From assembly GCA_944388985.1 (NCBI GenBank), contig CALXKT010000001.1, positions 1 through 53,725 of the forward strand: 53,725 nt of DNA, written 5' to 3'. This DNA comes from an uncultured Clostridia bacterium (GTDB taxonomy: Bacteria; Bacillota; Clostridia; TANB77; CAG-508). Position 1 is the first letter of the stretch. The number at the start of each line of letters is the position of its first letter. This document shows positions 3,792 through 49,986 of this stretch, in pieces. The notes below the pieces were generated by a model. It made no database searches and was not told the origin of the DNA. It saw only the letters and a program-made list of their open reading frames with translations. The position numbers and the translations under genes are program-made.

Positions 3792-5393
3792 TTAAGCAAT
3801 ATCTCTATCAAATTCTTTGCTGATATCGATATCAAATACATATACACCTTTTTCGTCAAAATCCTTACATAGCGACGAATACCTTATATTATCATCATTT
3901 GTTGCAAATAAAGCTTTTCTTTTTTGTTTTGCAGCATCTTCAAATAGATACATAAGTACTTTGCTTTTGAAAACTTGTATAAATAGTTCATCACTTTCTA
4001 ATGCTTTTGTAGCGATAAAATAAGGGCCAAGCAATTTATCTTCATTAATTTTTAGGGAACTCAGCTTATTGTTGATTGCTTTTCTTAACTTGTTCCATTC
4101 TACATTACGCTTAAACTCTCCCTTTCCAAGCACAACATATTTGCTGGCTATTCCTTCTTCTTTTTCATCTATTCCTAAGTAATCAAAATTCCATCTTCTT
4201 TTAAATGCAGTGTCCATTGGAAATACTCCTTGGTCGGCACTATTCATGGTCGCCCAAATAAACATATTGTCTGGAATAGCTATCTTTTTGTAATCTTCTG
4301 GACTTCCTCCTAATTCTTGTGCCAAATACTTTTTCATATCTTCTGAAGCTTCGATAGGATACTCGCTTACATGATTCTCATCACGGTCTAATAATTGGAA
4401 GATGTCGCCAAAGACAGCAGCCACATTTGCTCTATTAATTTCTTCTATCATTAATAAATATGGCTTAATATGATTCGTTCTGCTATTTTTTATAGCCTCC
4501 ACATAGATGCGCATAAATGGTCCTGGCACGTATTGATAGGTTATGCCTTCTTCCTCTCCCTTTTTATAAGGTACCGGTTTATAGGTTCCTACAAAATTTG
4601 CATAAGAATAATCTGGATGGAAAGTAACACGCTCATAGTTTTCTTCGTTTCCATCTTTTAATAATATTTTACGGTCTTCATTTAATCTATAGCTCTTTCC
4701 TGTTCCAGGTGCTCCAAAAACAATACGATTTCGACTAAATTCACTGACATATCCTGTTTTATAATTTGGGGCTATTCCCTCATAAAGCAATTCATCAACA
4801 TGTACAAGCGTATTGGTTGGCTTTTCATAGAATTTATTATTTAATTCTTGTAAGTTGTCATTCACATCATCTGGTAATATTCCATAGTATTCATACTCAA
4901 ACAGCTCTTTTTTCTTTAAGATAATTAAATATGCACCAACATGTAGCATCTTTCTAAATTTTATAAAATTATCGTCATCATAAGTTGGTAATGACATTTG
5001 AATTTGGTCTGCTTGTCCTGCTCTTTTACTTCTTACAATGGATACATAGGTTTTTAATTTTCCACTTTGAAATTCCATTTCCTCTGTTAGCACATCATGG
5101 TTTATATATTTTAGATTGCTTTCTGTTAACATCACAGGTATTTGCATAATAAAATATTTCTTCCTATTTTGCAAATTATGTATAAAGTAACCATCTGACC
5201 TAAAATATGGGAATATATCCATCTGGTCCCCGGTAATCGCAATATGGGTTTGGTTTGTTGTCCTATTAGCATCTAGTGTATTGCTTGCTTCCAATTTCTT
5301 TACTATTAATCCATCATAATCTGCTGGATTAATATCCGTTCCTAAATCTTTTAGTAGCTCTTTTACAGAATTAATTGCTTCCTCAAAATTCAT
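3792..5393 (-). CDS. McrB-like AAA+ GTPase restriction subunit with a distinct N-terminal DNA-binding domain (LlaJI.R1-like)
   Basis: Walker A GAPGTGKSY, Walker B LLMIEEINRANVAAVFGD, McrB signatures WATMNSADQG and FKRRWNF. About 220 aa of N-terminal domain are not assignable by eye. Confidence 0.8.
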   Translation of the reverse strand: MNFEEAINSVKELLKDLGTDINPADYDGLIVKKLEASNTLDANRTTNQTHIAITGDQMDIFPYFRSDGYFIHNLQNRKKYFIMQIPVMLTESNLKYINHDVLTEEMEFQSGKLKTYVSIVRSKRAGQADQIQMSLPTYDDDNFIKFRKMLHVGAYLIILKKKELFEYEYYGILPDDVNDNLQELNNKFYEKPTNTLVHVDELLYEGIAPNYKTGYVSEFSRNRIVFGAPGTGKSYRLNEDRKILLKDGNEENYERVTFHPDYSYANFVGTYKPVPYKKGEEEGITYQYVPGPFMRIYVEAIKNSRTNHIKPYLLMIEEINRANVAAVFGDIFQLLDRDENHVSEYPIEASEDMKKYLAQELGGSPEDYKKIAIPDNMFIWATMNSADQGVFPMDTAFKRRWNFDYLGIDEKEEGIASKYVVLGKGEFKRNVEWNKLRKAINNKLSSLKINEDKLLGPYFIATKALESDELFIQVFKSKVLMYLFEDAAKQKRKALFATNDDNIRYSSLCKDFDEKGVYVFDIDISKEFDRDIA

Positions 5394-5453
5394 AATTTAT
5401 CACATTCCTTTCTAGATTGTTTTAAATCCTTATCTTTATATCATAATTTTTAT

Positions 5454-5598
5454 TGCTTCTGTGGGCCGTCTTTTTTTCTTTTAGTTGGAGACTTAAGGTG
5501 GGGACCGACAAGTTTACAAACTGTTAAGCGAAGCTTGTACAGTTTGTACGCAGTTGGGGGTCGTAAACTAAAAGAAAAAAAGACGGTCTGCAGAAGCA
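5454..5598 (+). ncRNA. Unclassified structured hairpin element, copy 1 (invariant core in a copy-specific 33-bp closing stem); strand and RNA-versus-DNA role uncertain
   Basis: 5454-5486 pairs with 5566-5598 (30 Watson-Crick plus 3 G:T, no bulges). Core blocks are CTTAAGGTGGGGACCGACAAG (5492-5512) and ACAGTTTGTACGCAGTTGGGGG (5539-5560). Inner stem is TACAAACTGT/ACAGTTTGTA. No ORF. The same architecture occurs at 24395-24550 and 49679-49882. Confidence 0.45.
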
Positions 5599-5609
5599 TA
5601 ATCCCATAA

Positions 5610-7061
5610 TTATTCAATATTTTGCTCCTCTTCTAAACAACGTTTAATAACCTGTGCAATTGTTTTACTTAATAATGGCGGTACAGAATTTCCTATTTGC
5701 ATATAGGTTTTTGTGTAAGAGCCTCTAAAGAAATAATCATCTGGATAGGATTGCACTCTTGCGGCTTCCCTTGGCGTTAGCCCTCTAGCTTGTGTTGGGT
5801 GAATATACATGTTGCAATCAAATTTCATATGTGCTGTAATTGTTTTGCAAACCTTATTCTCCTCTAGCTTAAAATATTTATCTTTAAAAATATCGTTTCT
5901 ATTTTTATATGGCATAATATCTGCTATCTTAGGATCATCCGATTTATCTCCTTGTTTTAGTCTCCTAAAAATTTCGATATCCCTTTCATTATTATACCTA
6001 GCCTTATGATTAAAAATCAAGCCACAGGTTTTGTTTTGATTGATAATACTTATATACTCATTTTGATTTTGCCTATTATTTTTTTCAATTTTCTTTCCGG
6101 AATCGATTGTATCTCTTTCTGTTGCATTTTTTTCTTGTAGTGCTTTTAACTCTCTAAGCCCATATAACGCATCTTTTAAAACAAATTTCGGTATTGTTAG
6201 AGCTGTTTCTTCAATTTGCTTAAAGATTTCTTCATTATCGTATCCTACATTATTTCCGATAAATATTAATCTTTCTCTATTTTGTGGCACGCCATAATCT
6301 TTTGCATTTAGAATTTTGCAAGATACAGTGTAGCCAATTTTCTCAAAATCTTCTATTATTTGGTTTGCCACTGAATACATGCCTTTTACATTTTCCATTA
6401 CAAAAAATTTAGGTTTTACTAAATCTACCACTTTCACATAACTTTTATATAATTTATTTCTTGGGTCATCGATTACTCGTTGGCGATTCGCCATGCTAAA
6501 TCCTTGGCAAGGTGGTCCTCCCACTACGATATCAATTTTGTCAAATCTTTTTAATTCGTTTATCTTATCCATAATGTTATTAATATCGTCGCAAACTATA
6601 TTTTCTCTTGGTATTTCTGGATGATTATGGGAATAGGTGTCCACACAGCATTCTTCTATATCGTTTGCAAAAGCCACCTTAAACCCAGCCTGCACAAACC
6701 CTAAGGATAATCCTCCTGCTCCGCAGAATAAATCAATTAATGTTGGTGCATCATTTTCTACCTTATTATTTCTATTTTGTATATTGTAATTGCAATATTT
6801 CGCCACTGGACATTCGGCACATTTTTCTTCTTGACAAAATTTTTTATATAGCCATGTTAATTTATTTTCTTTTTCGTCAAATTCATACTCTCTAAAATAT
6901 TGCATTCTTTCCTTTAAATAAGCATTTGTGTTCTCTGCGCATAAATAATTTAATGCATTAAAAGCATATTCTTGGTTTGGATATTCCTCTTCATATAATT
7001 CGGAAAGAATACTACAAATTTCTTTTGCATCATTTTCATACTTTTTCGTTGTTTTAGTCAT
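5610..7061 (-). CDS. DNA (cytosine-5) methyltransferase with a Cys-rich N-terminal extension of about 100 aa
   Basis: Motif I DLFCGAGG, motif IV GGPPCQGFS, motif VI ENVKGM, motif VIII QNRERLIFIG, motif X GNSVPP. An 8-nt overlap with the upstream MTase gene (ATGACTAA) suggests translational coupling. Confidence 0.9.
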   Translation of the reverse strand: MTKTTKKYENDAKEICSILSELYEEEYPNQEYAFNALNYLCAENTNAYLKERMQYFREYEFDEKENKLTWLYKKFCQEEKCAECPVAKYCNYNIQNRNNKVENDAPTLIDLFCGAGGLSLGFVQAGFKVAFANDIEECCVDTYSHNHPEIPRENIVCDDINNIMDKINELKRFDKIDIVVGGPPCQGFSMANRQRVIDDPRNKLYKSYVKVVDLVKPKFFVMENVKGMYSVANQIIEDFEKIGYTVSCKILNAKDYGVPQNRERLIFIGNNVGYDNEEIFKQIEETALTIPKFVLKDALYGLRELKALQEKNATERDTIDSGKKIEKNNRQNQNEYISIINQNKTCGLIFNHKARYNNERDIEIFRRLKQGDKSDDPKIADIMPYKNRNDIFKDKYFKLEENKVCKTITAHMKFDCNMYIHPTQARGLTPREAARVQSYPDDYFFRGSYTKTYMQIGNSVPPLLSKTIAQVIKRCLEEEQNIE

Positions 7062-9044: not shown

Positions 9045-9103
9045 GAAACAAGGGGACACACAATTCGTTTCATTTTTGAAACAAATTGTGTGTCCCCAAT
9101 TGC
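9045..9103. repeat. GGGAC-core palindromic repeat, subfamily C (GAAACAAGGGGACACACAATTCGTTTC and its inverted partner)
   Basis: 9045-9071 and 9078-9097 are inverted copies (GGGGACACACAATT / AATTGTGTGTCCCC). A near-identical unit occurs at 36421-36480. It sits between the adhE stop and the hydrolase start. Confidence 0.8.
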
Positions 9104-11711: not shown

Positions 11712-11727
11712 GTTTTCCTCCCTTATT

Positions 11728-11816
11728 CCAATTTGGGGACAGGCGTTTTTCTTCACTTTTTTCCATAAAAAGGCCTGTCCCCAAATTGGAAAAAAGTGGA
11801 GAAAAAGGCCTGTCCC
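11728..11816. repeat. GGGAC-core palindromic repeat cluster, subfamily B (CCAATTTGGGGACAGGCGTTTTTCTTCACTTTTTTCC units)
   Basis: The full unit at 11728-11764 is followed by oppositely oriented partial units (GCCTGTCCCCAAATTGG at 11772-11788; GGAAAAAAGTGGAGAAAAAGGCCTGTCCC at 11787-11816). The cluster ends 16 nt from the adhE start codon. Confidence 0.85.
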
Positions 11817-11898: not shown

Positions 11899-13881
11899 CT
11901 ATAGTTGTATACTATTTTGTTTTTCTGGCCATATATCTGCCAATGTTATTGTTCGTGTATTATCTTGTGTTTTTCCTATCACAATACTAGATAATGGTAG
12001 ATTTCCTTTTTTTATTCCATCTTTTAATGTTTTCCAAAAAGTATTTTCTTCTTCTTGTGTCATTGTAGAATTAAGTGCTACTTTTACTAAATCTCCAATT
12101 TCTGCTATCATTACTTTTCGCTTTAAATCCATCATGTTTCTTTTTAAATCTTTATTTTCTGTCCTATTGGAATAATTGGTGCAAAATCCTTTTGCATCTT
12201 CAAATTTTCTATTTCCAATCAAATTATCTACCACCGCATTCAAATTCACTCCTGTTTCTCCTGCTGATACTTCCTCTAAGCTTTCTATTGCCTTATCGGC
12301 ATCTTTAATAGGATATCTCTCTGCTTGTTCTCTTAATGCATTTCTTATTTGTATCATAATTTGCTTTCTATGTTGTTCCTCTGTTAATCGAAATTTGCCT
12401 GTTCTTTCTTCGCTTCTTTCTTCTACTAATTTCTGAATTATTGCTTCTGTTTTTTCTGCTTGTTGCTTTCCGCTGCTAATATCCTGTAAAACTTCCTGTA
12501 GAGCCATTGGAATAGTATTATGCTTCTTTGCCATCCTCTTTTCATTTTCTATTTTTGCAATTCTTTGAAGAATGGTTGCTCTTGCTGTTTCTGAACCCAC
12601 TAATCCTTTCTGCTTATTTTCCGGCACTTCTTTTAGTAAACTTTTTAAAACATCTATATCGCCAATGGTATTTGCATAACTTTGTATTGCTCGTAGTAAC
12701 TTTGAATTAGCATACTCTCTCATTTTTAAAGTAGCTCTTCCTAAAAGAATTTTTTTATCTACGTTTTCCTCTAAAAAATCTGAATAAAATAATGCTTTTA
12801 GCCTTTGGGCTTGTTCTATGGAAAAAGACAAAGCTGCAATTTGTGTTAAGTTTTTGCCTATTTGTTGAATTAAATAGTTACTATTCTTTCCTTGTGAAAT
12901 CGCTTGCTGTAGCATTTGCAAATTATCTTCTATTTTACTAATTGTATTATCAATCACTTTACTGTCTTGCGAAATTCTATCTTTTTCTGTTTCTGTGCTA
13001 CTTCTTTTTTCATCTTTACCAATATATTTACTTTTATATTTTTCTTTCATCAAATGCATTTTATAACTTTCATTTGGATTTTCTTTTGGCACTATTGTTG
13101 CTTTCTCTTGTGCCTTGCTATGTGGTACTTCTGTTTCTGCAGATTTTTTCTTTGCCTCTTCTTTTTTACCTTGTAATTGATTTTCATGTGCCATGGTCAT
13201 TTTTTTAGCTAACACAGCTTCCATCTCCTCTACTGCTTCCCTACATACATTAAGTTCTTTATCCGCTGCTATTTCTGCCACGCTATCTCCTTTACTTAAT
13301 CTTTCTGCAATTTTTTGCACTTTTTGGTGTCTCATTTCCACAATATTGTTCACACTTTCTGTTGTAGCATAAACTTTTATTGCTTTTTGTATTCTTGCTT
13401 CGAATGCCTCGGCCGTTTCTCCTTCTTCTCTTTGTAACATTCTTTTAGCAATTTCTCTTTTTGGCATACATTGAACCAATAAAAAAATTACAGAGAACTC
13501 TTCTTGTAACCTTACCATCTGTTCTTCTGTAATTTCTAAACTTTTATCTTTCGCTAAATTTTCAAACGATTCTCCCTGTAGGATTCTTTCCTTAACTTTT
13601 TGTCTTAATTCCGAATTAATAACACCACTCTTTGGTGTTTCTTTCTTTGATTTGCTCGCTTCTAACTCTTTCACTCTGGCTATTGTTTGCTCTAAAATAC
13701 TTTGATAAATAGCATCAATTTCTTCTTGTCCTTTTTGCAACAAATCTTGAATTTTTTCATCTTTTAGATAACGCTCACTAATATTTCTTTGTCTTAAGTC
13801 TTCTAGCAATTTACTTTCTGCTCTTAGCACTCCATAAAATTTAGCTCTTTTCATGGTTGATTTCATTCCTTTCTTTCTCAA
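11899..13881 (-). CDS. Hypothetical, highly charged alpha-helical protein (660 aa) with repeated HTH-like modules
   Basis: Long ORF with no recognisable catalytic motif. It has an internal repeat: RQKVKERILQGESFENLAKDKSLEITEEQM versus HQKVQKIAERLSKGDSVAEIAADKELNVCREAV. The exact start is uncertain (TTG 13881, or ATG 13866/13854). Confidence 0.5.
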   Translation of the reverse strand: MRKKGMKSTMKRAKFYGVLRAESKLLEDLRQRNISERYLKDEKIQDLLQKGQEEIDAIYQSILEQTIARVKELEASKSKKETPKSGVINSELRQKVKERILQGESFENLAKDKSLEITEEQMVRLQEEFSVIFLLVQCMPKREIAKRMLQREEGETAEAFEARIQKAIKVYATTESVNNIVEMRHQKVQKIAERLSKGDSVAEIAADKELNVCREAVEEMEAVLAKKMTMAHENQLQGKKEEAKKKSAETEVPHSKAQEKATIVPKENPNESYKMHLMKEKYKSKYIGKDEKRSSTETEKDRISQDSKVIDNTISKIEDNLQMLQQAISQGKNSNYLIQQIGKNLTQIAALSFSIEQAQRLKALFYSDFLEENVDKKILLGRATLKMREYANSKLLRAIQSYANTIGDIDVLKSLLKEVPENKQKGLVGSETARATILQRIAKIENEKRMAKKHNTIPMALQEVLQDISSGKQQAEKTEAIIQKLVEERSEERTGKFRLTEEQHRKQIMIQIRNALREQAERYPIKDADKAIESLEEVSAGETGVNLNAVVDNLIGNRKFEDAKGFCTNYSNRTENKDLKRNMMDLKRKVMIAEIGDLVKVALNSTMTQEEENTFWKTLKDGIKKGNLPLSSIVIGKTQDNTRTITLADIWPEKQNSIQL

Positions 13882-13944
13882 GACCAGATTTGGTTGGAAA
13901 AGAATTAAATTTTGTAATTCTTTTTCAACATTCTCTCTTTTTTA

Positions 13945-13968
13945 TTGCATAGGAAATTTCCTATGCAA
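13945..13968. promoter_or_regulatory. Perfect 24-bp palindrome TTGCATAGGAAA|TTTCCTATGCAA; candidate operator or hairpin upstream of the 660-aa gene
   Basis: Read directly from the sequence. It lies in the 288-bp gap between the guaD stop and the 660-aa ORF start. Confidence 0.35.
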
Positions 13969-14116
13969 CAAGGTTAAGTTACCTTGGGCTGTGCATATTC
14001 GCGAAGCGAAATGCACATGTGGCGAAGCCACTTTTTTTACAAATTCTTACATATTATACCATATTTTTACTAGTGACGCAATATGTAAACCAAAAATATA
14101 GGGTAAAATTGTACCG

Positions 14117-14156
14117 AAAAATATCCCAGTTACTTTATCATAACTAGGATATTTTT
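14117..14156 (-). terminator. Rho-independent terminator of guaD
   Basis: On the minus strand, AAAAATATCCTAGTTA ... TAACTGGGATATTTTT forms a stem followed by a T-run. The single non-Watson-Crick position is G:U on the minus strand. Confidence 0.6.
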
Positions 14157-14169
14157 ATCTGTACTTTGC

Positions 14170-14631
14170 TTAATAGATTGTTTTATTCTTTTTTTGATAT
14201 TCTTCAAACAAAGAAATACATTCCTCACGGTTAATTTGTTTTAAGTTAATTAATTCTTTATTATGTCCTGCTAGATATTTATAAATAGCATCATCTCGAA
14301 AACCAATGTTTCCTGCATCTTCTCGTGTACATCCATAATATATTTCTTTTATATTTGCCCAAATAATAGCGGATAAGCACATTGGACATGGCTCACAGGA
14401 AGTATATAAAATGTAACCCGATAAATCATAGGTGCCTAGCTTTTGGCAAGCTTCCCTTATAACTGTTACTTCTGCATGAGCAGTTGGGTCATTGCTAACA
14501 AGTACTCTGTTATTTCCTTTTGCAATAATGTTACCTGCTTTATCGGTAATAACTGCACCAAATGGTCCTCCTTCTCCTGCATTTGCTCCATGCTCGGCAC
14601 ATTCTTTTGCAATTTTCATATATTCATTCAT
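14170..14631 (-). CDS. guaD: Guanine deaminase (CDA-fold, GuaD type)
   Basis: 153 aa. GGPFGAVI, TAHAEVTVIREAC and TSCEPCPMCLSAI (HAE / PCxxC zinc site). From memory it is collinear with B. subtilis GuaD. Confidence 0.8.
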   Translation of the reverse strand: MNEYMKIAKECAEHGANAGEGGPFGAVITDKAGNIIAKGNNRVLVSNDPTAHAEVTVIREACQKLGTYDLSGYILYTSCEPCPMCLSAIIWANIKEIYYGCTREDAGNIGFRDDAIYKYLAGHNKELINLKQINREECISLFEEYQKKNKTIY

Positions 14632-14788
14632 ATGTTTCCTCCTTCGGTGTTTTTGTGTTAGTATATACGAGTTTTAGAGGAAATGTCAAGGGACGTCGCC
14701 ATACTCCTCCTTTGCATAAGCAAAAATAGTATTAAGTTTGCAAAAAATGTCGAAAAGTAATAGTTTTGCAAGTGTATTTGCAAAACTA

Positions 14789-14817
14789 TTGACAAATATT
14801 TAAAAAAATGTTATATT
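14789..14817 (+). promoter_or_regulatory. Sigma-A type promoter (TTGACA - 17 nt - TATATT), preceded by an 11-bp-arm inverted repeat
   Basis: TTGACA at 14789-14794, TATATT at 14812-14817. The inverted repeat TAGTTTTGCAA/TTGCAAAACTA at 14761-14788 abuts the -35 and is a possible operator. Confidence 0.5.
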
Positions 14818-14821
14818 TTAA

Positions 14822-16051
14822 ATGGAGATGATTAGTGTGATTATAAGAGAAAATTATTTAAATTTACTAATTGAAGCAAAAGATACCGAATTTATTAAAG
14901 TTATTACTGGTGTTAGAAGAAGTGGTAAGTCTACATTATTATTGATGTTTAAAGAATATCTTTTGAATAATAAGGTGGATGAAAAAAATGTTATCCATAT
15001 GAATTTTGAATCTGCAATATATGATTATATAAAGGACTATAAAGATTTATACAATGAAATAAAAAGCAAAATTCGTAATGGAAAAATGTATATATTGTTA
15101 GATGAAATTCAAAATATAGAAAAATGGGAAAAGGCAATTAATTCATTGAATATTGACTTTGATGTAGACATTTATATTACTGGTTCTAATGCATATTTAC
15201 TATCGAGTGAACTAGCAACATTGTTGTCGGGTAGATATATTGAAATAAAAATGTATACATTGTCGTTTAAAGAATTTCTTAAATTTAATGGCTATAATCA
15301 AGAACATATAGAAGATAAGTTTAATGAGTATTTGAAGTATGGAGGACTTCCAGCAATAACGCAAATTAAAGAAAAGAATAATTTAATTATGTCATACTTG
15401 ACTGATATTTATAACACAATCGTAAAAAAAGATATTATTGAAAGAAATAATATTAAAGATATTGCCCTTTTAGAAAATATAGTAAAATATATTTCTTCTA
15501 ATATTGGAAGTTCCGTTTCAGCCAATAAAATAAGTGATTATTTAAATAGCAATAAAATAGTTGAAAAAACAAATCATCAAACAATTGATAATTATTTAAA
15601 GATGTTAGAAAATGCCTTTATTGTCTATAAAGCTGAAAGAAGTGATATAAGAAGCAAAGCTTTACTAAAAACATTAGGCAAATACTATATAGCAGATACA
15701 GGATTAAGAAATATAATTTTGGGCTTTAGAAATATTGATGAAGGACATTTGTTAGAGAACGTAGTATATATAGAATTGTTACGAAGAGGATATAAGATTA
15801 GTATTGGTAAAACATTAGATTACGAAGTAGATTTTGTAGCAGAAAATCCGGAAGAAATAAAATATTATCAAGTAACCAAAAGCTTATTGGACGATAATGT
15901 TAAAGAGAGGGAAATTAGAAGTTTAGAAAGTATACCGGATAATTACGAAAAAACTATTCTAACAATGGATAAAACAATTAATAAAGATTATAACGGAATA
16001 AAAGTAAAAAATATTATAGAATTTTTGCTAGAAAATAATAATGGGAAATAA
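14822..16051 (+). CDS. AAA-family ATPase of the AAA_14/DUF4143 type
   Basis: Walker A GVRRSGKSTLL and Walker B ILLDEIQ, with a C-terminal DUF4143-like region. The start may instead be the GTG at 14837 (SD GGAG at 14824). Confidence 0.7.
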   Translation: MEMISVIIRENYLNLLIEAKDTEFIKVITGVRRSGKSTLLLMFKEYLLNNKVDEKNVIHMNFESAIYDYIKDYKDLYNEIKSKIRNGKMYILLDEIQNIEKWEKAINSLNIDFDVDIYITGSNAYLLSSELATLLSGRYIEIKMYTLSFKEFLKFNGYNQEHIEDKFNEYLKYGGLPAITQIKEKNNLIMSYLTDIYNTIVKKDIIERNNIKDIALLENIVKYISSNIGSSVSANKISDYLNSNKIVEKTNHQTIDNYLKMLENAFIVYKAERSDIRSKALLKTLGKYYIADTGLRNIILGFRNIDEGHLLENVVYIELLRRGYKISIGKTLDYEVDFVAENPEEIKYYQVTKSLLDDNVKEREIRSLESIPDNYEKTILTMDKTINKDYNGIKVKNIIEFLLENNNGK

Positions 16052-18700: not shown

Positions 18701-19777
18701 ATGAGTATTGAATCAGATTTAAAAAAGGATGGAATTACCGTTGTTGGTAAGTTAGATACATTAAGCGTAAATACCATTTCGAGGAACATAGCAGAAAAAA
18801 TTTGTAGGACTTTTCCAGAACAAAACTTTATTTTTCAAAATCTTTTTATTGCATTATCTAGAATACCAATGTATATCGCAGACATTCCAGCGGGATTTGC
18901 GGAAGCTACTTATTTTTATAAAAATTCTTCCATGTATTTCAAGCAAGGCTTATCATTAGAGGAATTAGAAAAGTTTGCAGTACATGAGTTTATTCATTAT
19001 TTGCAAGAGATTAAAGATAAAAAAGGACGTTTAGTAAAACTCGGTTTGTGCGATTTTGGAGATTTAAAGGTTTGTGGCATGGGCTTAAACGAGGGAGCTG
19101 TTCAACTTATGGCTTCCAAAGCTTTGGAATCACCAGAAGAAATTGTAAAATATTATGGCATTTCCTTTCCTACTATTAGCCCATCTTATTATCCACTTTT
19201 ATGCAATTTAGTAAACCAGATGGCTTACGTAGTGGGAGAAGAAACACTTTATGATAGCACTTTTTATGGAACAGATGCTTTTAAAGAGCGTTTTGCCAAT
19301 TTGTGTGGAGTAGACAATTTCTTTAAGATTCAATCCAATTTAGATAAAATTATGGAAGCAGAAGAAAAAGCGATAAAACTAAACAACAAGTTAATGAGTG
19401 ATGATGTTGAGGGTAACAAAGCACAAAAAATTGCCAAGAAAATAGAAGCTTATAAAACAAAAATCGGAAAACTTTTCTTTGAAACGCAAAATTTAATTTA
19501 CACATCTTACTTTAACACACAATTTACTAAGCTTTCTACTACCGCTGATATTGATGAATATCGTTTGCGTTTATACAATTACAAAAACTATATGGGAATT
19601 TCGGACAATTATTCTGACTTTAACGAATTTTACATTAATAAAATGATGGATTTAGATAATAAATATGAAAGCATTATGAATAATACTGGTTTAGTAGTAG
19701 CTAATAATTCGACAATTGCTAGATTTTTCCGCAAAATAAGAGCAATTTTATCGGCTACCGTAGAACTAAAAAAATAA
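18701..19777 (+). CDS. Hypothetical protein with an HExxH motif (possible metallopeptidase)
   Basis: 358 aa. The only motif seen is AVHEFIHYLQE. SD AAGGAG is upstream. Confidence 0.45.
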   Translation: MSIESDLKKDGITVVGKLDTLSVNTISRNIAEKICRTFPEQNFIFQNLFIALSRIPMYIADIPAGFAEATYFYKNSSMYFKQGLSLEELEKFAVHEFIHYLQEIKDKKGRLVKLGLCDFGDLKVCGMGLNEGAVQLMASKALESPEEIVKYYGISFPTISPSYYPLLCNLVNQMAYVVGEETLYDSTFYGTDAFKERFANLCGVDNFFKIQSNLDKIMEAEEKAIKLNNKLMSDDVEGNKAQKIAKKIEAYKTKIGKLFFETQNLIYTSYFNTQFTKLSTTADIDEYRLRLYNYKNYMGISDNYSDFNEFYINKMMDLDNKYESIMNNTGLVVANNSTIARFFRKIRAILSATVELKK

Positions 19778-19785
19778 ATATAGTA

Positions 19786-19857
19786 AGAGCTTGAACAAAA
19801 GGGACACTCCTTTTTGTTCAAGCTCTTAAACGTTTAGGAGTGTCCCTTTTGTTCAAA
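19786..19857. repeat. GGGAC-core repeat pair, subfamily A, between convergent genes (probable bidirectional terminator)
   Basis: AGAGCTTGAACAAAAGGGACACTCCTTTTTGTTCAAGCTCT is followed by TAAACGTTTAGGAGTGTCCCTTTTGTTCAAAC, the inverted copy. Confidence 0.8.
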
Positions 19858-19872
19858 CTTTTAATTCAGTCA

Positions 19873-21165
19873 TTATTTTTTGCGCAGAACAAGTGCGTCC
19901 CCAATTGCGCAAGCAGTATCTCTTCCGGCACGAGCCGCCCAAGCTACTGTGGCTTTATCTCCTGCCAAATCTCCTCCTGCATAAATTTTTGGATTGGAAG
20001 TTTTGTGATTTTCGTCTACTTCTATATATCCCCATTTATTTAGTGCTAGTCCTAATTTTTCTACAATTTCTTTTTCTGGACTTGAGCCTACTGCCATTAC
20101 AACATAATCCATATCCATTACATAGTTACTGTTTTCTATGTTAACTGGTACTTCTCTTGTTTCTCCCTCTTTTTTTACTAACTCGGTTCTAATACATTCT
20201 ATTTTTTCAACTTTTTTGTCTCCTAAAATTTTTACTATATTATTCTGAAATAAAAACTCGATACCCTCTTCTTTTGCTTCCGCAATTTCTTTTGTCTCTG
20301 CTGGCATTTGTTTTTCTGCCCTACGGTAGATGACGGAAACCTTTTCTGCTCCTAGTCTTTTTATGGTTCGTGCGCAATCCATTGCCACATTGCCACCGCC
20401 AATTACGGCTACTTTCTTACCTACATAAGATGGATGTTTTCCTGTTTCTAATAAACGATTTCCTCCATAAACGCCTTCTAAGTCTTCTCCCTCAATATGC
20501 ATTTTTGCAGGAATATTAGCTCCAAATCCTAAGAAAATAGCATCATAATTGTTTTCTAGCTCTTTTAAATCTAAATTTTTTCCTAGCTCTTTGTGATATT
20601 CTACTTTTATTCCTAAGCTTAGAATGGCTTCCACTGTTTTTTGCAATACGGATTTTTCCAATCGAAATTCTGGTATTCCGTGGGATAAAATACCGCCTAG
20701 CTCTCCTTGTTTTTCAAAAATGGTAACTTCTGCTCCACTTCTTGCTAAAAAAGCACTACAAGTAAGACCAGCAGGACCGCCTCCTACCACTGCCACTTTT
20801 TTTCCTTTTAATTCGTCTGTCTTTTCTAACTTTTCATACCACTTGTTTTTTAGCGCCTCATCAAAAACATATGCTTCAATCTTTCCTATTTGAACTGGCT
20901 CTCCTTTAATTCCGCGTACACAGCTTCCCTCACACTGCTTCATATGTGGGCATATTCTTCCGCAAACGCTTCCTAGAACTGTGGTATTGCTTAATATTTT
21001 GTATGCCTCTTCTACCTTTCCCTCTTTTACTTGCTTTATAAAGGCTGGTATGTCATTATTTAGTGGGCAACCTTTATTACTACAAGGTTTTGCAGGGCAA
21101 TTCAAGCAATATTCTGTGGCTTTTTGTATTTCTTCGCTTATTTTCTCATTCATCTCTGTGTTCAT
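19873..21165 (-). CDS. GltD-like NAD(P)H-dependent FAD oxidoreductase with N-terminal Fe-S cysteines (glutamate synthase small-chain / SudA family)
   Basis: Cys cluster CLNCPAKPCSNKGCP, two dinucleotide folds VAVVGGGPAGL and VAVIGGGNVAMDCAR. The likely start is MNTEMNEK (ATG 21165). Confidence 0.8.
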   Translation of the reverse strand: MNTEMNEKISEEIQKATEYCLNCPAKPCSNKGCPLNNDIPAFIKQVKEGKVEEAYKILSNTTVLGSVCGRICPHMKQCEGSCVRGIKGEPVQIGKIEAYVFDEALKNKWYEKLEKTDELKGKKVAVVGGGPAGLTCSAFLARSGAEVTIFEKQGELGGILSHGIPEFRLEKSVLQKTVEAILSLGIKVEYHKELGKNLDLKELENNYDAIFLGFGANIPAKMHIEGEDLEGVYGGNRLLETGKHPSYVGKKVAVIGGGNVAMDCARTIKRLGAEKVSVIYRRAEKQMPAETKEIAEAKEEGIEFLFQNNIVKILGDKKVEKIECIRTELVKKEGETREVPVNIENSNYVMDMDYVVMAVGSSPEKEIVEKLGLALNKWGYIEVDENHKTSNPKIYAGGDLAGDKATVAWAARAGRDTACAIGDALVLRKK

Positions 21166-24237: not shown

Positions 24238-24394
24238 GGTTTTCCCTCCTGTTTTTCAATTTTTACTTTTTCTTTATGCATTTCTATCGATTTCGTACTT
24301 AACTATTGTATCATTTTTTAGATGCAAAGGCAACTAATTTTTGGTCGTTTTCTTGAACAAAAGTTACTGGATAGTTACAATTCACGGTTGTTTT

Positions 24395-24550
24395 AATCGT
24401 AGCAATGTATATTTTAAATTTATGTTGGAGTGCTTAAGGTGGGGACCGACAAGTTTACAAACTGTTAAACGAAACATAAGTGGAGTTTATACAGTTTGTA
24501 CGCAGTTGGGGGCCGGAAACATAAATTTAAAATATACATTGTTACGACTT
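24395..24550 (+). ncRNA. Unclassified structured hairpin element, copy 2
   Basis: A 29-bp closing stem: 24398-24426 pairs with 24518-24546 (28 Watson-Crick plus 1 G:T), extended by AAT/ATT-like pairs with one bulge. Core blocks are identical to copy 1 (36 nt at 24433-24468 and 22 nt at 24491-24512). The apical hairpin differs. Confidence 0.45.
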
Positions 24551-24600
24551 TTTAGAACAAGCTTTGAATGGTAACACTGACTAATGAAGAAAAAATGCAT

Positions 24601-24629
24601 TTGCCTTTTTCTTAAAAGCGTAGTATAAT
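24601..24629 (+). promoter_or_regulatory. Sigma-A type promoter TTGCCT - 17 nt - TATAAT for the gene at 24699
   Basis: -35 at 24601-24606 and -10 at 24624-24629. SD AAAGGAG lies before the ATG at 24699. Confidence 0.5.
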
Positions 24630-24698: not shown

Positions 24699-25364
24699 AT
24701 GCCTGGTTACTTAATTCATTTAGCATCTTGTTACCCCGGCAGCTTATCTTCGCAAAGTTTTCGGCTTGGAGTAGAAGCGCCCGATTTGCTAAAAGGCTAT
24801 TATAAGCGATTTGGCTTAGAGGGTGCTCGGAGTAAGTGGGAATCCTTAAGAATTCCCGGCATTCCTCGCTTCGACCGATTTGAAAAAAGAGTTCAGCAAC
24901 CAGAGCTAAAAGGCTCTACAGACGGACTACATTTTGGTCCAAGTTCCTCGCCAGATTTAACTGCGTTCTGGAATTCATTATCCTTGCCGGAGCAATACTC
25001 TCCGTTTTGGCGGGGATATCTGTGGCATCTAGCTACAGACAAAGTCTTCTATAAGAGGCTTCGCATTGAAGAACTTCTTAAGAAAAAAATGGCAACGATG
25101 CAAAGAGGTAAGAAAGCATACGAAAAAGAGGTTTCTCAACTGCACCTAGATTGGGATAGGACAAATTCTCTTGTCTTAAGTCACTATCCTCATTTGTTCA
25201 TTCCTCTGGAACTGCAAGAGCTTGATGTGATTCACTTTGTAGAGGATAAAAACTTTCGCTATATAAGCGAGATTATCCTACTGGACACTATTGACTATTT
25301 GAGGAAATTCGATCCCCTTTCTGATGGAATCATGAACTCCATCCAGTTCATTCTGGAAGGATAA
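24699..25364 (+). CDS. Hypothetical protein, compositionally foreign; weak resemblance to the Zn-dependent phospholipase C / P1-nuclease-fold hydrolase family
   Basis: 221 aa. N-terminal GYLIHL and internal GYLWHLATD His/Asp motifs. G+C hand count is 58/120 in 24721-24840, against 21-24 per 60 nt in the flanking genes. It has its own promoter and terminator. Confidence 0.4.
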   Translation: MPGYLIHLASCYPGSLSSQSFRLGVEAPDLLKGYYKRFGLEGARSKWESLRIPGIPRFDRFEKRVQQPELKGSTDGLHFGPSSSPDLTAFWNSLSLPEQYSPFWRGYLWHLATDKVFYKRLRIEELLKKKMATMQRGKKAYEKEVSQLHLDWDRTNSLVLSHYPHLFIPLELQELDVIHFVEDKNFRYISEIILLDTIDYLRKFDPLSDGIMNSIQFILEG

Positions 25365-26284: not shown

Positions 26285-26325
26285 TACTTTCACCTCTTTC
26301 TCTGTTTTTTCAATTTGGACGTTAG

Positions 26326-26453
26326 GGACACTCTTTTTTGTCCAAGTTTTTGGTGAACGTTGGGGACACTCCTTTTTGTTTAAGAACTTGAACATTTAGG
26401 AGTGTCCCTTTTGTTCAAGTTCTTGAACGTTTAGGAGTGTCCCTTTTGTTCAA
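26326..26453. repeat. Four tandem subfamily-A GGGAC units of about 35 bp (two forward, two inverted)
   Basis: GGGACACTC at about 26335 and GGGGACACTCC at about 26362, then GGAGTGTCCC at 26398-26407 and at about 26434. Each is flanked by TTGAAC/GTTCAA words. The cluster overlaps the addB stop codon (26450-26452). Confidence 0.85.
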
Positions 26454-29914: not shown

Positions 29915-29932
29915 ATTTTTCTCCTTTTTAGT

Positions 29933-30152
29933 CCAATTTGGGGACAGGCGTTTTTCTCTACTTTTTTCCAGTTTAGGGACAGGTCTTTTTCTCTCATTTG
30001 CTCTCATTTTCGCGAAATTAAGATATCAATTTTCGTCTTATTTTTCCATTTTTGCTCTAGTACTACTTTTCAATTGCTTTATTATTTCTTCTTTACGAAC
30101 GGGTGTCCCAATTTTGGAAAAAAGTAGAGAAAAACGCCTGTCCCCAAATTGG
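29933..30152. mobile_element. MITE-like 220-bp element with perfect 37-bp terminal inverted repeats (subfamily-B GGGAC units)
   Basis: 29933-29969 (CCAATTTGGGGACAGGCGTTTTTCTCTACTTTTTTCC) is the exact reverse complement of 30116-30152. Degenerate second units lie just inside each end. There is no ORF and no obvious target-site duplication. Confidence 0.6.
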
Positions 30153-30155
30153 AAT

Positions 30156-33893: not shown

Positions 33894-33917
33894 CCTGTTA
33901 GCTCCTTTCTTTGCTTT

Positions 33918-33987
33918 ACTTGAACAGAAGGGACACTCCTATTTGTTCAAGCTTTTGGACAAATAGGAGTGTCCCTTCTGTCCAAGT
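33918..33987. repeat. GGGAC-core repeat pair, subfamily A (probable rnc terminator)
   Basis: ACTTGAACAGAAGGGACACTCCTATTTGTTCAAGC is followed by TTTTGGACAAATAGGAGTGTCCCTTCTGTCCAAGT. The two halves carry matching variant bases (AGAAGGG/CCCTTCT, CCTATTT/AAATAGG). Confidence 0.8.
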
Positions 33988-33994
33988 ATCCAAG

Positions 33995-37442: not shown

Positions 37443-37682
37443 TTCTTTTGTGTAGTATTTAATTTTCCTGTTTAAAATATAATTTCACACTCCTTTTTGT
37501 GACGTGACAAAGTTAATTATACCATATATTCTATGCAATTTCAAATTAAATATTCTATTTTCTCGCAAATTTGGCAATTTTCAGATATTTCGTCGATTTT
37601 TGATTTTGTTTTATCTCATGGTTTTCTCACTTTTTCTCGTTTTTTCTTGTTTTTTCTCGTTTTTTCAGCTATTGACATTCGA

Positions 37683-37752
37683 CCTTGAACAAAAGGGACA
37701 CTCCTTTTTGTTCAAGCTCTTGAACGTTTTGGAGTGTCCCTTTTGTTTAAGG
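37683..37752. repeat. GGGAC-core repeat pair, subfamily A (probable terminator of the P-type ATPase gene)
   Basis: CCTTGAACAAAAGGGACACTCCTTTTTGTTCAAGCTC plus TTGAACGTTTTGGAGTGTCCCTTTTGTTTAAGG, 3 nt from the ATPase stop codon. Confidence 0.8.
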
Positions 37753-37754
37753 TT

Positions 37755-44584: not shown

Positions 44585-44603
44585 TCATTACACCTACTTT
44601 TCT

Positions 44604-44698
44604 AGTTTAGGGACAGGCGTTTTTCTTCACCTTTTTCCAATTTAGGGACAGGCCTTTTTCTTCACTTTTTTCCAATTTAACGCCTGTCCCTAAATTGG
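44604..44698. repeat. GGGAC-core repeat cluster, subfamily B (two tandem units plus one inverted partial unit)
   Basis: AGTTTAGGGACAGGCGTTTTTCTTCACCTTTTTCC, AATTTAGGGACAGGCCTTTTTCTTCACTTTTTTCC, AATTTAACGCCTGTCCCTAAATTGG. The cluster ends 19 nt from the smc start codon. Confidence 0.85.
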
Positions 44699-44766
44699 AC
44701 TCTCACTCACTCCCTCATTATATTAAAATTTCCTCTTTTTTTCAACAAATTTTTCTAATTTCTATG

Positions 44767-48362: not shown

Positions 48363-48440
48363 GAACTTGAACAAAAGGGACACTCCTAAACGTTTAAGAA
48401 CTTGAACAAAAGGCAGTAGTCCCTTTTGTTCAAGTTCAAG
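48363..48440. repeat. GGGAC-core repeat pair, subfamily A, between convergent HD-GYP and mazF genes (probable bidirectional terminator)
   Basis: GAACTTGAACAAAAGGGACACTCCTAAACGTTTAAGAAC plus TTGAACAAAAGGCAGTAGTCCCTTTTGTTCAAGTTCAAG, followed by TTTTT. Confidence 0.8.
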
Positions 48441-49573: not shown

Positions 49574-49641
49574 TGCATTAACTCCTTTTACCAGACCAGA
49601 TTTACATCATTTGTTCCTCGGAAAATTTTATAGTGTTGCCT

Positions 49642-49918
49642 GTTACTAGATAATAGTTTATTAGGTTATATCTTGCCCAAATGCAGTTAGTGGATACTTT
49701 TCATTTTTATTTACGACTCAAGGTGGGGACCGACAAGATACAGGCTGTGGAAAAATTACTCTTGAAGAAAAAACTTGTTTTTTCTTCAAGTAGAAATAGG
49801 CAGAACCCCTGTAATTTTTACTACAGACTGTTCGATGTTGGGGGGAGTAAATACAAATGAAAAGTACCCACTAACTGCATTTCAAAATAAAAAGAATGAT
49901 AAACCATTATCTTGTAAC
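49642..49918 (+). ncRNA. Unclassified structured hairpin element, copy 3; a 277-bp foldback with the conserved core, flanked by a 9-bp direct repeat
   Basis: Outer arms 49642-49663 / 49897-49918 (19 Watson-Crick plus 1 G:T of 22). Main 36-bp stem 49679-49714 / 49847-49882 (34 of 36 paired). Core AAGGTGGGGACCGACAAG at 49720-49737 and GTTGGGGG at 49837-49844. Direct repeat GTGTTGCCT at 49633-49641 and 49919-49927. Confidence 0.5.
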
Positions 49919-49986
49919 GTGTTGCCTATCGCCCAGCTGTAAGAAAAAAGTAGATTAACTACTCATTAATCTACTTTCATTTTATT

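Follow-up and report, generated by a model that had tools for sequence, protein, structure and literature searches.

A probable foldback MITE with an invariant internal junction, inserted between divergent genes of an uncultured gut Clostridia bacterium

Bacterial MITEs that fold as hairpins over their whole length include Correia/NEMIS of Neisseria, ERIC/IRU of the enterobacteria and RUP of Streptococcus pneumoniae. Like the element described here, they are non-coding, intergenic, multicopy sequences of 100-300 bp with terminal inverted repeats and target duplications, and are imperfect palindromes that would form a long hairpin if transcribed and that vary in length by internal insertion. 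The present element differs from them in the sequence of its terminal repeats, in its hosts, which are uncultured low-GC gut Clostridia, in its strong orientation bias, and in being most conserved at an internal asymmetric junction, found within several sets of ends, rather than at the ends themselves; its target duplication is 8-9 bp, whereas that of Correia is 2 bp. The REP/BIME/REPIN sequences are likewise intergenic palindromes, often located just downstream of genes, with orientation effects and with doublets that form long hairpins. REP units, however, are 20-40 nt in length, make no target duplication and are accompanied by a RAYT gene, whereas the element is 150-280 bp, has inverted-repeat ends and duplications, and no RAYT was found with it. 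BOX of S. pneumoniae (boxA-boxB-boxC) resembles the element in being intergenic, in consisting of modules that recombine and in the stable RNA hairpins predicted for it, but lacks terminal inverted repeats and target duplications of the element's kind and shares no sequence similarity with it. Covarying helices, short invariant junction strands and multicopy occurrence are also features of small ribozymes (hammerhead, twister, pistol and hatchet) and of Rfam hairpin RNAs, although, in contrast to repeat-borne ribozymes, the element is matched by no Rfam 15 model on either strand and signature cores such as CUGAUGA...GAAA are absent from it.

The element is represented by three copies in the stretch of DNA analysed here (53,725 nucleotides, referred to below as the window), the second of which is the subject of this report. 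Copy 2 is very probably a MITE, i.e., a non-autonomous DNA transposon, since terminal repeats, a duplication of fixed length, many copies, no coding capacity and the existence of empty sites together are what defines this class. The features of the locus, with orientation set by the G-rich junction strand, are as follows.

24333-24305, minus strand: promoter-like site, flanking copy 2 on the left
24352-24363, plus strand: 12-nt fragment CTTGAACAAAAG of the CTTGAACAAAAGGGAC... palindromic repeat family, just outside copy 2
24366-24373, unstranded: left target-site duplication ACTGGATA, exactly at the element end, matching 24576-24583 at 6 of 8 positions
24374-24575, plus strand: copy 2, a complete foldback element of 202 bp, very probably a MITE
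24374-24387, plus strand: left terminal inverted repeat GTTACAATTCACGG, 1 mismatch to the family consensus GTTACAATTCACAG
24397-24426, plus strand: 5' arm of the P1 closing stem, by inverted-repeat pairing; P1 columns covary
24432-24453, plus strand: invariant 5' junction, in the order GCTT (P1.1), 10-nt bulge, CCGAC (P2a), AAG
24454-24500, plus strand: P2 hairpin, with a variable apical part at 24466-24490 and compensatory variants such as ACAAAGTGT/ACACTTTGT
24500-24517, plus strand: conserved 3' junction ACGCAGTTGGGGGCCGGA, with GTTGG:CCGAC and GGGC:GCTT pairing
24518-24547, plus strand: 3' arm of the P1 closing stem, by inverted-repeat pairing with 24397-24426
24562-24575, minus strand: right terminal inverted repeat, CTTTGAATGGTAAC on the plus strand, 2 mismatches to the consensus GTTACAATTCACAG
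24576-24583, unstranded: right target-site duplication ACTGACTA, decayed, abutting the right end of copy 2
24601-24629, plus strand: promoter-like site of gene 24699-25364 (TTGCCT-17-TATAAT), outside the element and conserved in the related strain L120

The other two copies in the window are:

5449-5603, plus strand: copy 1, 155 bp, with a stem of its own and a core identical to that of copy 2
49642-49918, plus strand: copy 3, 277 bp, a long-P2 variant with terminal repeat GTTACTAGATAATAG, a different 36-bp stem and a longer inner hairpin

Copy 2 is bounded by the terminal inverted repeats GTTACAATTCAC.../...GAATGGTAAC. An earlier, sequence-only reading of the window had noted the words GTTAC at 24363-24367 and GTAAC at 24571-24575, shared with copy 3; both are present, and the words are tips of the terminal inverted repeats, but comparison across the family moves the left end from 24363 to the second GTTAC, at 24374. 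That reading had also seen no flanking direct repeat, whereas ACTGGATA and ACTGACTA abut the ends and represent a decayed 8-bp target-site duplication. The closing stem, reported previously as 29 bp, pairs as described but is one pair longer: its arms, 30 nt each, 97% complementary and spaced 91 nt apart, contain a sole non-Watson-Crick pair, G24402:T24542, which is indeed G:T on the plus strand. Within the stem, the identity of the core to that of copy 1 is exact, with 24433-24464 corresponding to 5492-5523 and 24491-24512 to 5539-5560 (0 mismatches over both blocks; 0 expected by chance from shuffled sequence), and alignment of the two copies both carries the first identical block on to 24468 and bears out the difference between their apical hairpins. 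Folding of 24390-24555 as RNA gives -62.7 kcal/mol (z = -9.3 against shuffles), and for the whole 202-nt copy an end-to-end DNA fold of -45.3 kcal/mol (z = -11.4) is obtained. The sole ORF across copy 2 (24341-24574) covers the variable stems and is unconserved, so that coding capacity is absent. The locus was found to be identical in six independent metagenome assemblies (L114-L119), which rules out the assembly artefact that had been raised as a concern.

In well-preserved copies, exact 8-9-bp direct repeats lie immediately outside the ends, and a sliding search for duplications gave an exact match in 8 of 91 copies, compared with 1 of 91 in a shifted control. Exact duplications were recorded at the following sites.

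L003: exact duplication TACTATTT
L072: exact duplication AAGCATTA
L073: exact duplication ATATTTTG
L091: exact duplication ATGTGAAT
L044: exact duplication ACCCGATT
Window copy 3, 49633-49641 and 49919-49927: exact 9-bp duplication GTGTTGCCT

Sites without the element were found in two relatives of the host. In a related strain (L120), an identical 221-aa protein and the same promoter are present and the element is absent, 18 nt standing in place of the window's 256 nt with TGGATA kept at the empty site; other indels also differ there, and the excision boundary is therefore not clean. A related species (L128), which encodes a 57%-identical orthologue of the protein, has a 218-nt spacer lacking the element, and synteny is kept through genes for UDG, LD-carboxypeptidase, the orthologue, Cu-oxidase_4 and AddB. 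Among other contigs corresponding to copies 1 and 3, the copy 1 site is filled (L122) and the copy 3 contig (L124) ends inside the repeat. When the ORFs of ~100 loci are clustered, only housekeeping families recur beside the copies, each at 10 loci or fewer, with no transposase among them and no candidate partner gene; similarly, neither the window nor ~120 loci of 8 kb yielded an autonomous IS with these ends. A 3.9-kb segment of the window (11983-15876), with weak matches to the copy-3 terminal repeat at its bounds, was considered as an autonomous element and rejected, as it contains ordinary genes and no transposase. Copy 2 would have entered the spacer that separates two divergent promoters, those of the LD-carboxypeptidase gene and of the 221-aa gene, generating a target duplication of 8 bp, and would have been mobilised in trans, presumably by a DDE-type transposase recognising the GTTAC... 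ends.

The anatomy of the element was read from an alignment of 81 copies and consists of nested palindromic shells, which are, from the outside in, the terminal repeat, P1, P1.1, the bulge, P2a, an internal loop and P2. Across the family, P1 is ~30 bp in length and AT-rich, and comprises several sequence subfamilies, while P1.1 is a helix of 2-4 bp that covaries (GAC:GTC, GTC:GAC, GTTC:GAAC, GGAC:GTCC, CGTC:GACG). The bulge, AAGGUGGGGA, is an invariant, G-rich 10-nt sequence present on the 5' strand only, and is represented in copy 2 by the unpaired AAGGTGGGGA at 24436-24445. P2a is CCGAC:GUUGG, 5 bp with one G:U included, and is separated by the small internal loop, AAG opposite ACGCA, from the covarying P2, whose apex accepts insertions of 11-60 nt. 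The junction so formed (5' strand CUUAAGGUGGGGACCGACAAG, 3' strand ACGCAGUUGGGGG) is invariant while helices and terminal repeats differ by subfamily, and the 18-mer at 24436-24453 is identical in more than 100 copies. Because the 5' junction had been the original query, metagenomes were also queried with the 3' junction from a diverged subgroup as a control for bias; the exact 5' 18-mer was present in 7 of 7 genuine low-GC matches found via the 3' junction, and their P1, P2 and ends differ. Further copies detected in the loci with nhmmer deviate from the 18-mer by at most 1 nt, and a G-to-A change (CCAAC) still pairs with GTTGG.

Pairing is maintained throughout the family, with 90.6% of cells paired against 37-49% with slid partners, double-sided changes in 28 of 39 pairs and covariation far above controls. 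The description of a repeated hairpin with a conserved core and a different yet pairing stem stands. The stems are 96% Watson-Crick and G:T pairs (32) are in no significant excess over A:C (21; p = 0.17), so the stems give no support to a role at the RNA level. Stem covariation does not single out RNA, as a palindromic DNA transposon would give the same pattern.

The two strands of the junction are direct repeats of each other (GKTGGGGRCCGR). In at least nine copies, from several stem subfamilies (L024, L028, L045, L049, L054, L058, L074, L084 and L104), the 3' junction has GCCAAAGG where others have GTTGGGGG, a change that amounts to TTGG being swapped for its reverse complement CCAA, plus one A, and that breaks the CCGAC:GTTGG helix. 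Two orthologous copies (L049:2713-2873 and L098:5224-5384) are near-identical apart from this difference, indicating a templated or converted block and not a set of point mutations. Orthologous copy pairs in general show few differences, too few to weigh selection on the junction after insertion. In one further copy (L063:5845-5994), the inner 5' arm has been replaced by TTTGGCCCCAAG, the complement of the 3' junction of the same copy, an arrangement that resembles the copying anew of one arm from its partner in a fold-back.

The family was assembled from a scan in which each species was represented by a single genome; the 18-mer AAGGTGGGGACCGACAAG matched at least 113 loci. Among the matches listed, ~12 are chance occurrences in high-GC genomes and ~100 are real elements, distributed over no fewer than 10 MAGs of uncultured Clostridia from human or animal guts, with 4-10 or more loci in each; the window, which comes from this lineage, has its three copies in 53.7 kb. 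The element is absent from phage and plasmid collections, where two IMG/VR matches are chance ones in 45%-GC coding DNA. A scan for tRNA and tmRNA genes found none. A full-text literature search for the core sequence gave no match, and a keyword search of the literature on MITEs in Clostridia returned nothing specific to the element. Elements bounded by GTTACAATTCACAG and its complement CTGTGAATTGTAAC occur at 20 loci, measure 192-211 bp and enclose the core in all cases; in these relatives the palindrome runs past the 30-bp stem as far as GTTACAATTCACAG...CTGTGAATTGTAAC, and the units so bounded are 192-194 or 201-211 bp long. Copy 1, in common with several relatives, is without GTTAC ends and without a clear duplication. 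It occupies a gap of 216 nt that has a DNA methylase gene on one side and a pair of AAA_5/LlaJI-type restriction genes on the other (window 3792-7061), and hence lies inside a restriction-modification operon.

Ends, stems and cores are combined in different ways in these genomes. The junction is found inside at least three kinds of ends, namely GTTACAATTCAC, GTTACTAGATAATGG (the copy 3 type) and others, and ~10 copies lie between inverted REP-like units of the type GCAAAAGGGGACGGGC. Other MITE families have the terminal repeats GTTACTAGATAATGG or GTTACAATTCAC around different conserved interiors of 268, 160 and 100 bp, and the 268-bp family additionally has the outer stem CTAGGTAATATGTATATTT, which is the outer part of P1, in common with the element. 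No Rfam match was obtained for these families with other cores, members of which are:

L051:2423-2690, L056:2080-2348, L087:7721-7988 and L103:809-1068: MITEs with the 268-bp interior
L029:3578-3737 and L058:431-590: MITEs with the 160-bp interior
L007:1953-2052: MITE with the 100-bp interior

Since other cores are found within these ends and this outer stem, and the same junction is located inside several unrelated sets of ends, the junction is a cargo module and not part of the transposition apparatus. The suspicion that the repeat families of the window exchange sequence with one another is likewise borne out by this sharing of modules. At a single orthologous intergenic site, different species can contain copies of different stem subfamilies (L102:2737-2897 versus L109:4797-4946; L042 versus L049/L098), which suggests repeated insertion at a hot spot or replacement of one copy by another. 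A diverged subgroup, from other gut and rumen metagenomes (L134, L139, L140 and L144), has a conserved left-end word, G(T/C)AGAGTAG, that is without a matching complement at the right end and differs from the GTTAC ends of the window copies.

Placement of the copies is intergenic, only 3 of 93 touching an ORF, and the median copy lies ~40 nt past the preceding stop codon, in either orientation, and ~100 nt ahead of the next start codon. Relative to both neighbours, the count for the G-rich strand is 60 antisense to 11 sense (85% antisense in co-directional settings; p = 2.6e-9), and the strand bias with respect to local gene direction and G/C skew is 68 to 21. This orientation bias could reflect the direction of replication instead of transcription; the loci that are discordant for the two number only two and point opposite ways, and GC skew in the window tracks gene direction and so provides no independent proxy. 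Copy 2 is one of 12 copies situated between divergent genes. As the promoters on either side of it both point away, it is probably transcribed from neither and is probably a silent, neutral insertion.

The gene to the right of copy 2 (24699-25364; 221 aa) is on the strand opposite to its neighbours. Its high GC content, to which the sequence-only reading drew attention, is confirmed: at 42.2% (40.5% GC3) it is 9 points above the genome and ranks highest of 1062 windows of 666 bp. The protein has no match in Pfam, NCBIfam, PADLOC or a PDB sequence search, and belongs to a small family of 34 unnamed metagenome proteins. Its 57%-identical orthologue at the same locus in another species is likewise GC-rich and syntenic, from which it follows that the gene is a long-term resident and that copy 2 is a later, lineage-specific insertion. 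The possibility that element and gene arrived together is contradicted by L120 and L128, which have kept the gene or its orthologue and lack the element.

The best overall explanation, and one that is considered reasonably probable, is that copy 2 is a MITE with a cargo junction. As to the role of the junction, an orientation-dependent effect of the folded transcript is preferred, but only tentatively suggested: the element would act only when transcribed through, folding into a long hairpin, and the exposed junction would make the effect on the host transcript dependent on orientation; selection would then keep the G-rich strand antisense to neighbouring genes. Alternatively, the main identity of the hairpin could be that of a novel structured-RNA gene (for a small self-cleaving ribozyme or an RNA that binds protein, for example) or of a recognition module in single-stranded DNA, the junction being its active site and the transposon shells the means by which it spreads. 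The layout is that of a functional RNA, in that two fully covarying helices flank ~35 invariant junction nucleotides, and the junction is more conserved across subgroups than the terminal repeats. Three invariant G:U pairs are located beside the bulge, on the G-rich strand only, where a natural G-to-A change restores Watson-Crick pairing, and either of the directly repeated junction strands is able to pair with CCGAC. This reading is nevertheless judged unlikely, given that Rfam 15, searched on both strands, has 0 matches at the gathering threshold in the window and none in the loci of five relatives, and at E <= 10 on the locus gives only chance-level miRNA and snoRNA matches. Nor was a conserved promoter or intrinsic terminator found in the element, which has no core promoter on either strand, or a protein gene associated with the copies. 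The antisense position of the G-rich strand in most co-directional settings and the lack of wobble enrichment in the stems also count against it, and as the junction nucleotides never vary, the pairings of the junction are beyond the reach of covariation. It is conceivable, if doubtful, that the junction is a previously undescribed nucleic-acid module (a small ribozyme, a protein- or ribosome-binding RNA, or a G-rich switch) that has been captured by several unrelated MITE scaffolds and is spreading in gut Clostridia as mobile cargo; in the switch version, CCGAC could alternate between two GKUGGGG partners.

The uniformity of the junction may also have another origin, if it is a passenger without function whose copies have been kept alike by gene conversion and by transposition bursts in the recent past, originating from a few master copies; the orientation bias would then be a by-product, e.g., of purging of the Shine-Dalgarno-like AAGGUGGGGA from mRNAs. 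Copies are near-identical within a subfamily, stem mismatches are of all kinds, as in neutral decay, and orthologous sites with different subfamilies or block-converted junctions suggest replacement or conversion. A passenger would, however, be expected to diverge at least as fast as the stems, whereas the junction is exactly common to subfamilies whose terminal repeats differ, as do their stems at practically all positions, the deeply diverged subgroup from other hosts included, and this origin is therefore regarded as possible but not likely. Movement of the element as a single-stranded hairpin, IS200/IS605-derived or in the style of REP/REPIN, by a Y1 (HUH) transposase for which the junction is the recognition site, would be in keeping with the strong strand bias with respect to gene direction and skew, with the conservation of structure and not of stem sequence, and with the GTAG-like left-end word of one subgroup. 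IS200/IS605 chemistry, however, yields no exact 8-9-bp target-site duplications at inverted-repeat ends, of the kind found here, and no TnpA- or RAYT-like ORF was found near the copies, making this mode of movement highly improbable. The nested architecture, the ~10 copies between inverted REP-like GCAAAAGGGGACGGGC units and the location of copies just past stop codons would be in keeping with such a history if the closing stems were pre-existing host palindromes (terminators or REP-like hairpins) into the centre of which an 80-nt core had inserted. Against such an origin, the P1 arms can be aligned family-wide, with near-invariant positions and recurring subfamilies that are common to another MITE family, the 30-bp AT-rich P1 is unlike a terminator, and no duplication surrounds the core inside P1; there is accordingly very little likelihood that the stems preceded the core in this way.

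Several further classes were considered for the element and rejected: a retron, there being no reverse transcriptase nearby; an integron attC site, as copies are dispersed singly between housekeeping genes and no integrase is near copy 2; a terminator, as the element has neither a G+C-rich stem nor a T-run; an invertible promoter, as the element contains no promoter and its inverted repeats are not constant from copy to copy; and an IS200/IS605-derived palindrome or member of the REP/RAYT class, given the duplications and inverted-repeat ends and the failure to find such an ORF nearby.

As a MITE, the element is ordinary biology. Its annotation matters, as such elements break gut Clostridia MAG assemblies (contig L124, which ends inside copy 3, being an example), are located within operons and promoter regions, and, in screens based on covariation, give signals like those of structured RNAs. 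An invariant internal asymmetric junction, with helices and ends that have been replaced, inverts what is usually seen in MITEs. If the junction is active, the family would amount to a naturally occurring means of dispersing an RNA module, regulatory or catalytic, throughout a genome, and would offer a compact, portable hairpin scaffold for the engineering of low-GC Firmicutes.

Other repeats are present in the window. The repeat fragment previously noticed at 24352-24363, adjoining copy 2, is CTTGAACAAAAG, and is missing from L120, as is the element. A promoter-like site, TTGAAC-17-TACAAT at 24353-24381, spans the boundary between this fragment and copy 2, taking its -35 box from the fragment and its -10 box from the terminal repeat (GTTACAATTC), and points into copy 2 on the G-rich strand. 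Small hairpins, CTTGAACAAAAG-GGACACTCC-TTTTTGTTCAAG, most often arranged as inverted doublets in the manner of REPINs, make up a second repeat family, found at the following positions.

19768-19879, 26312-26452, 33917-33988, 37682-37753 and 48363-48437: second repeat family

A third family, based on TCCAATTTGGGGACAGGCGTTTTTCT, is located at 11723-11816, 29932-30153 and 44601-44699 (also 9052-9097); its member at 29932-30153 has 50-nt inverted ends with tandem sub-repeats and a 122-nt centre, and resembles a small transposon with multiple binding sites. A GGGGAC-like word is common to all repeat families of the genome and to the hairpin core.
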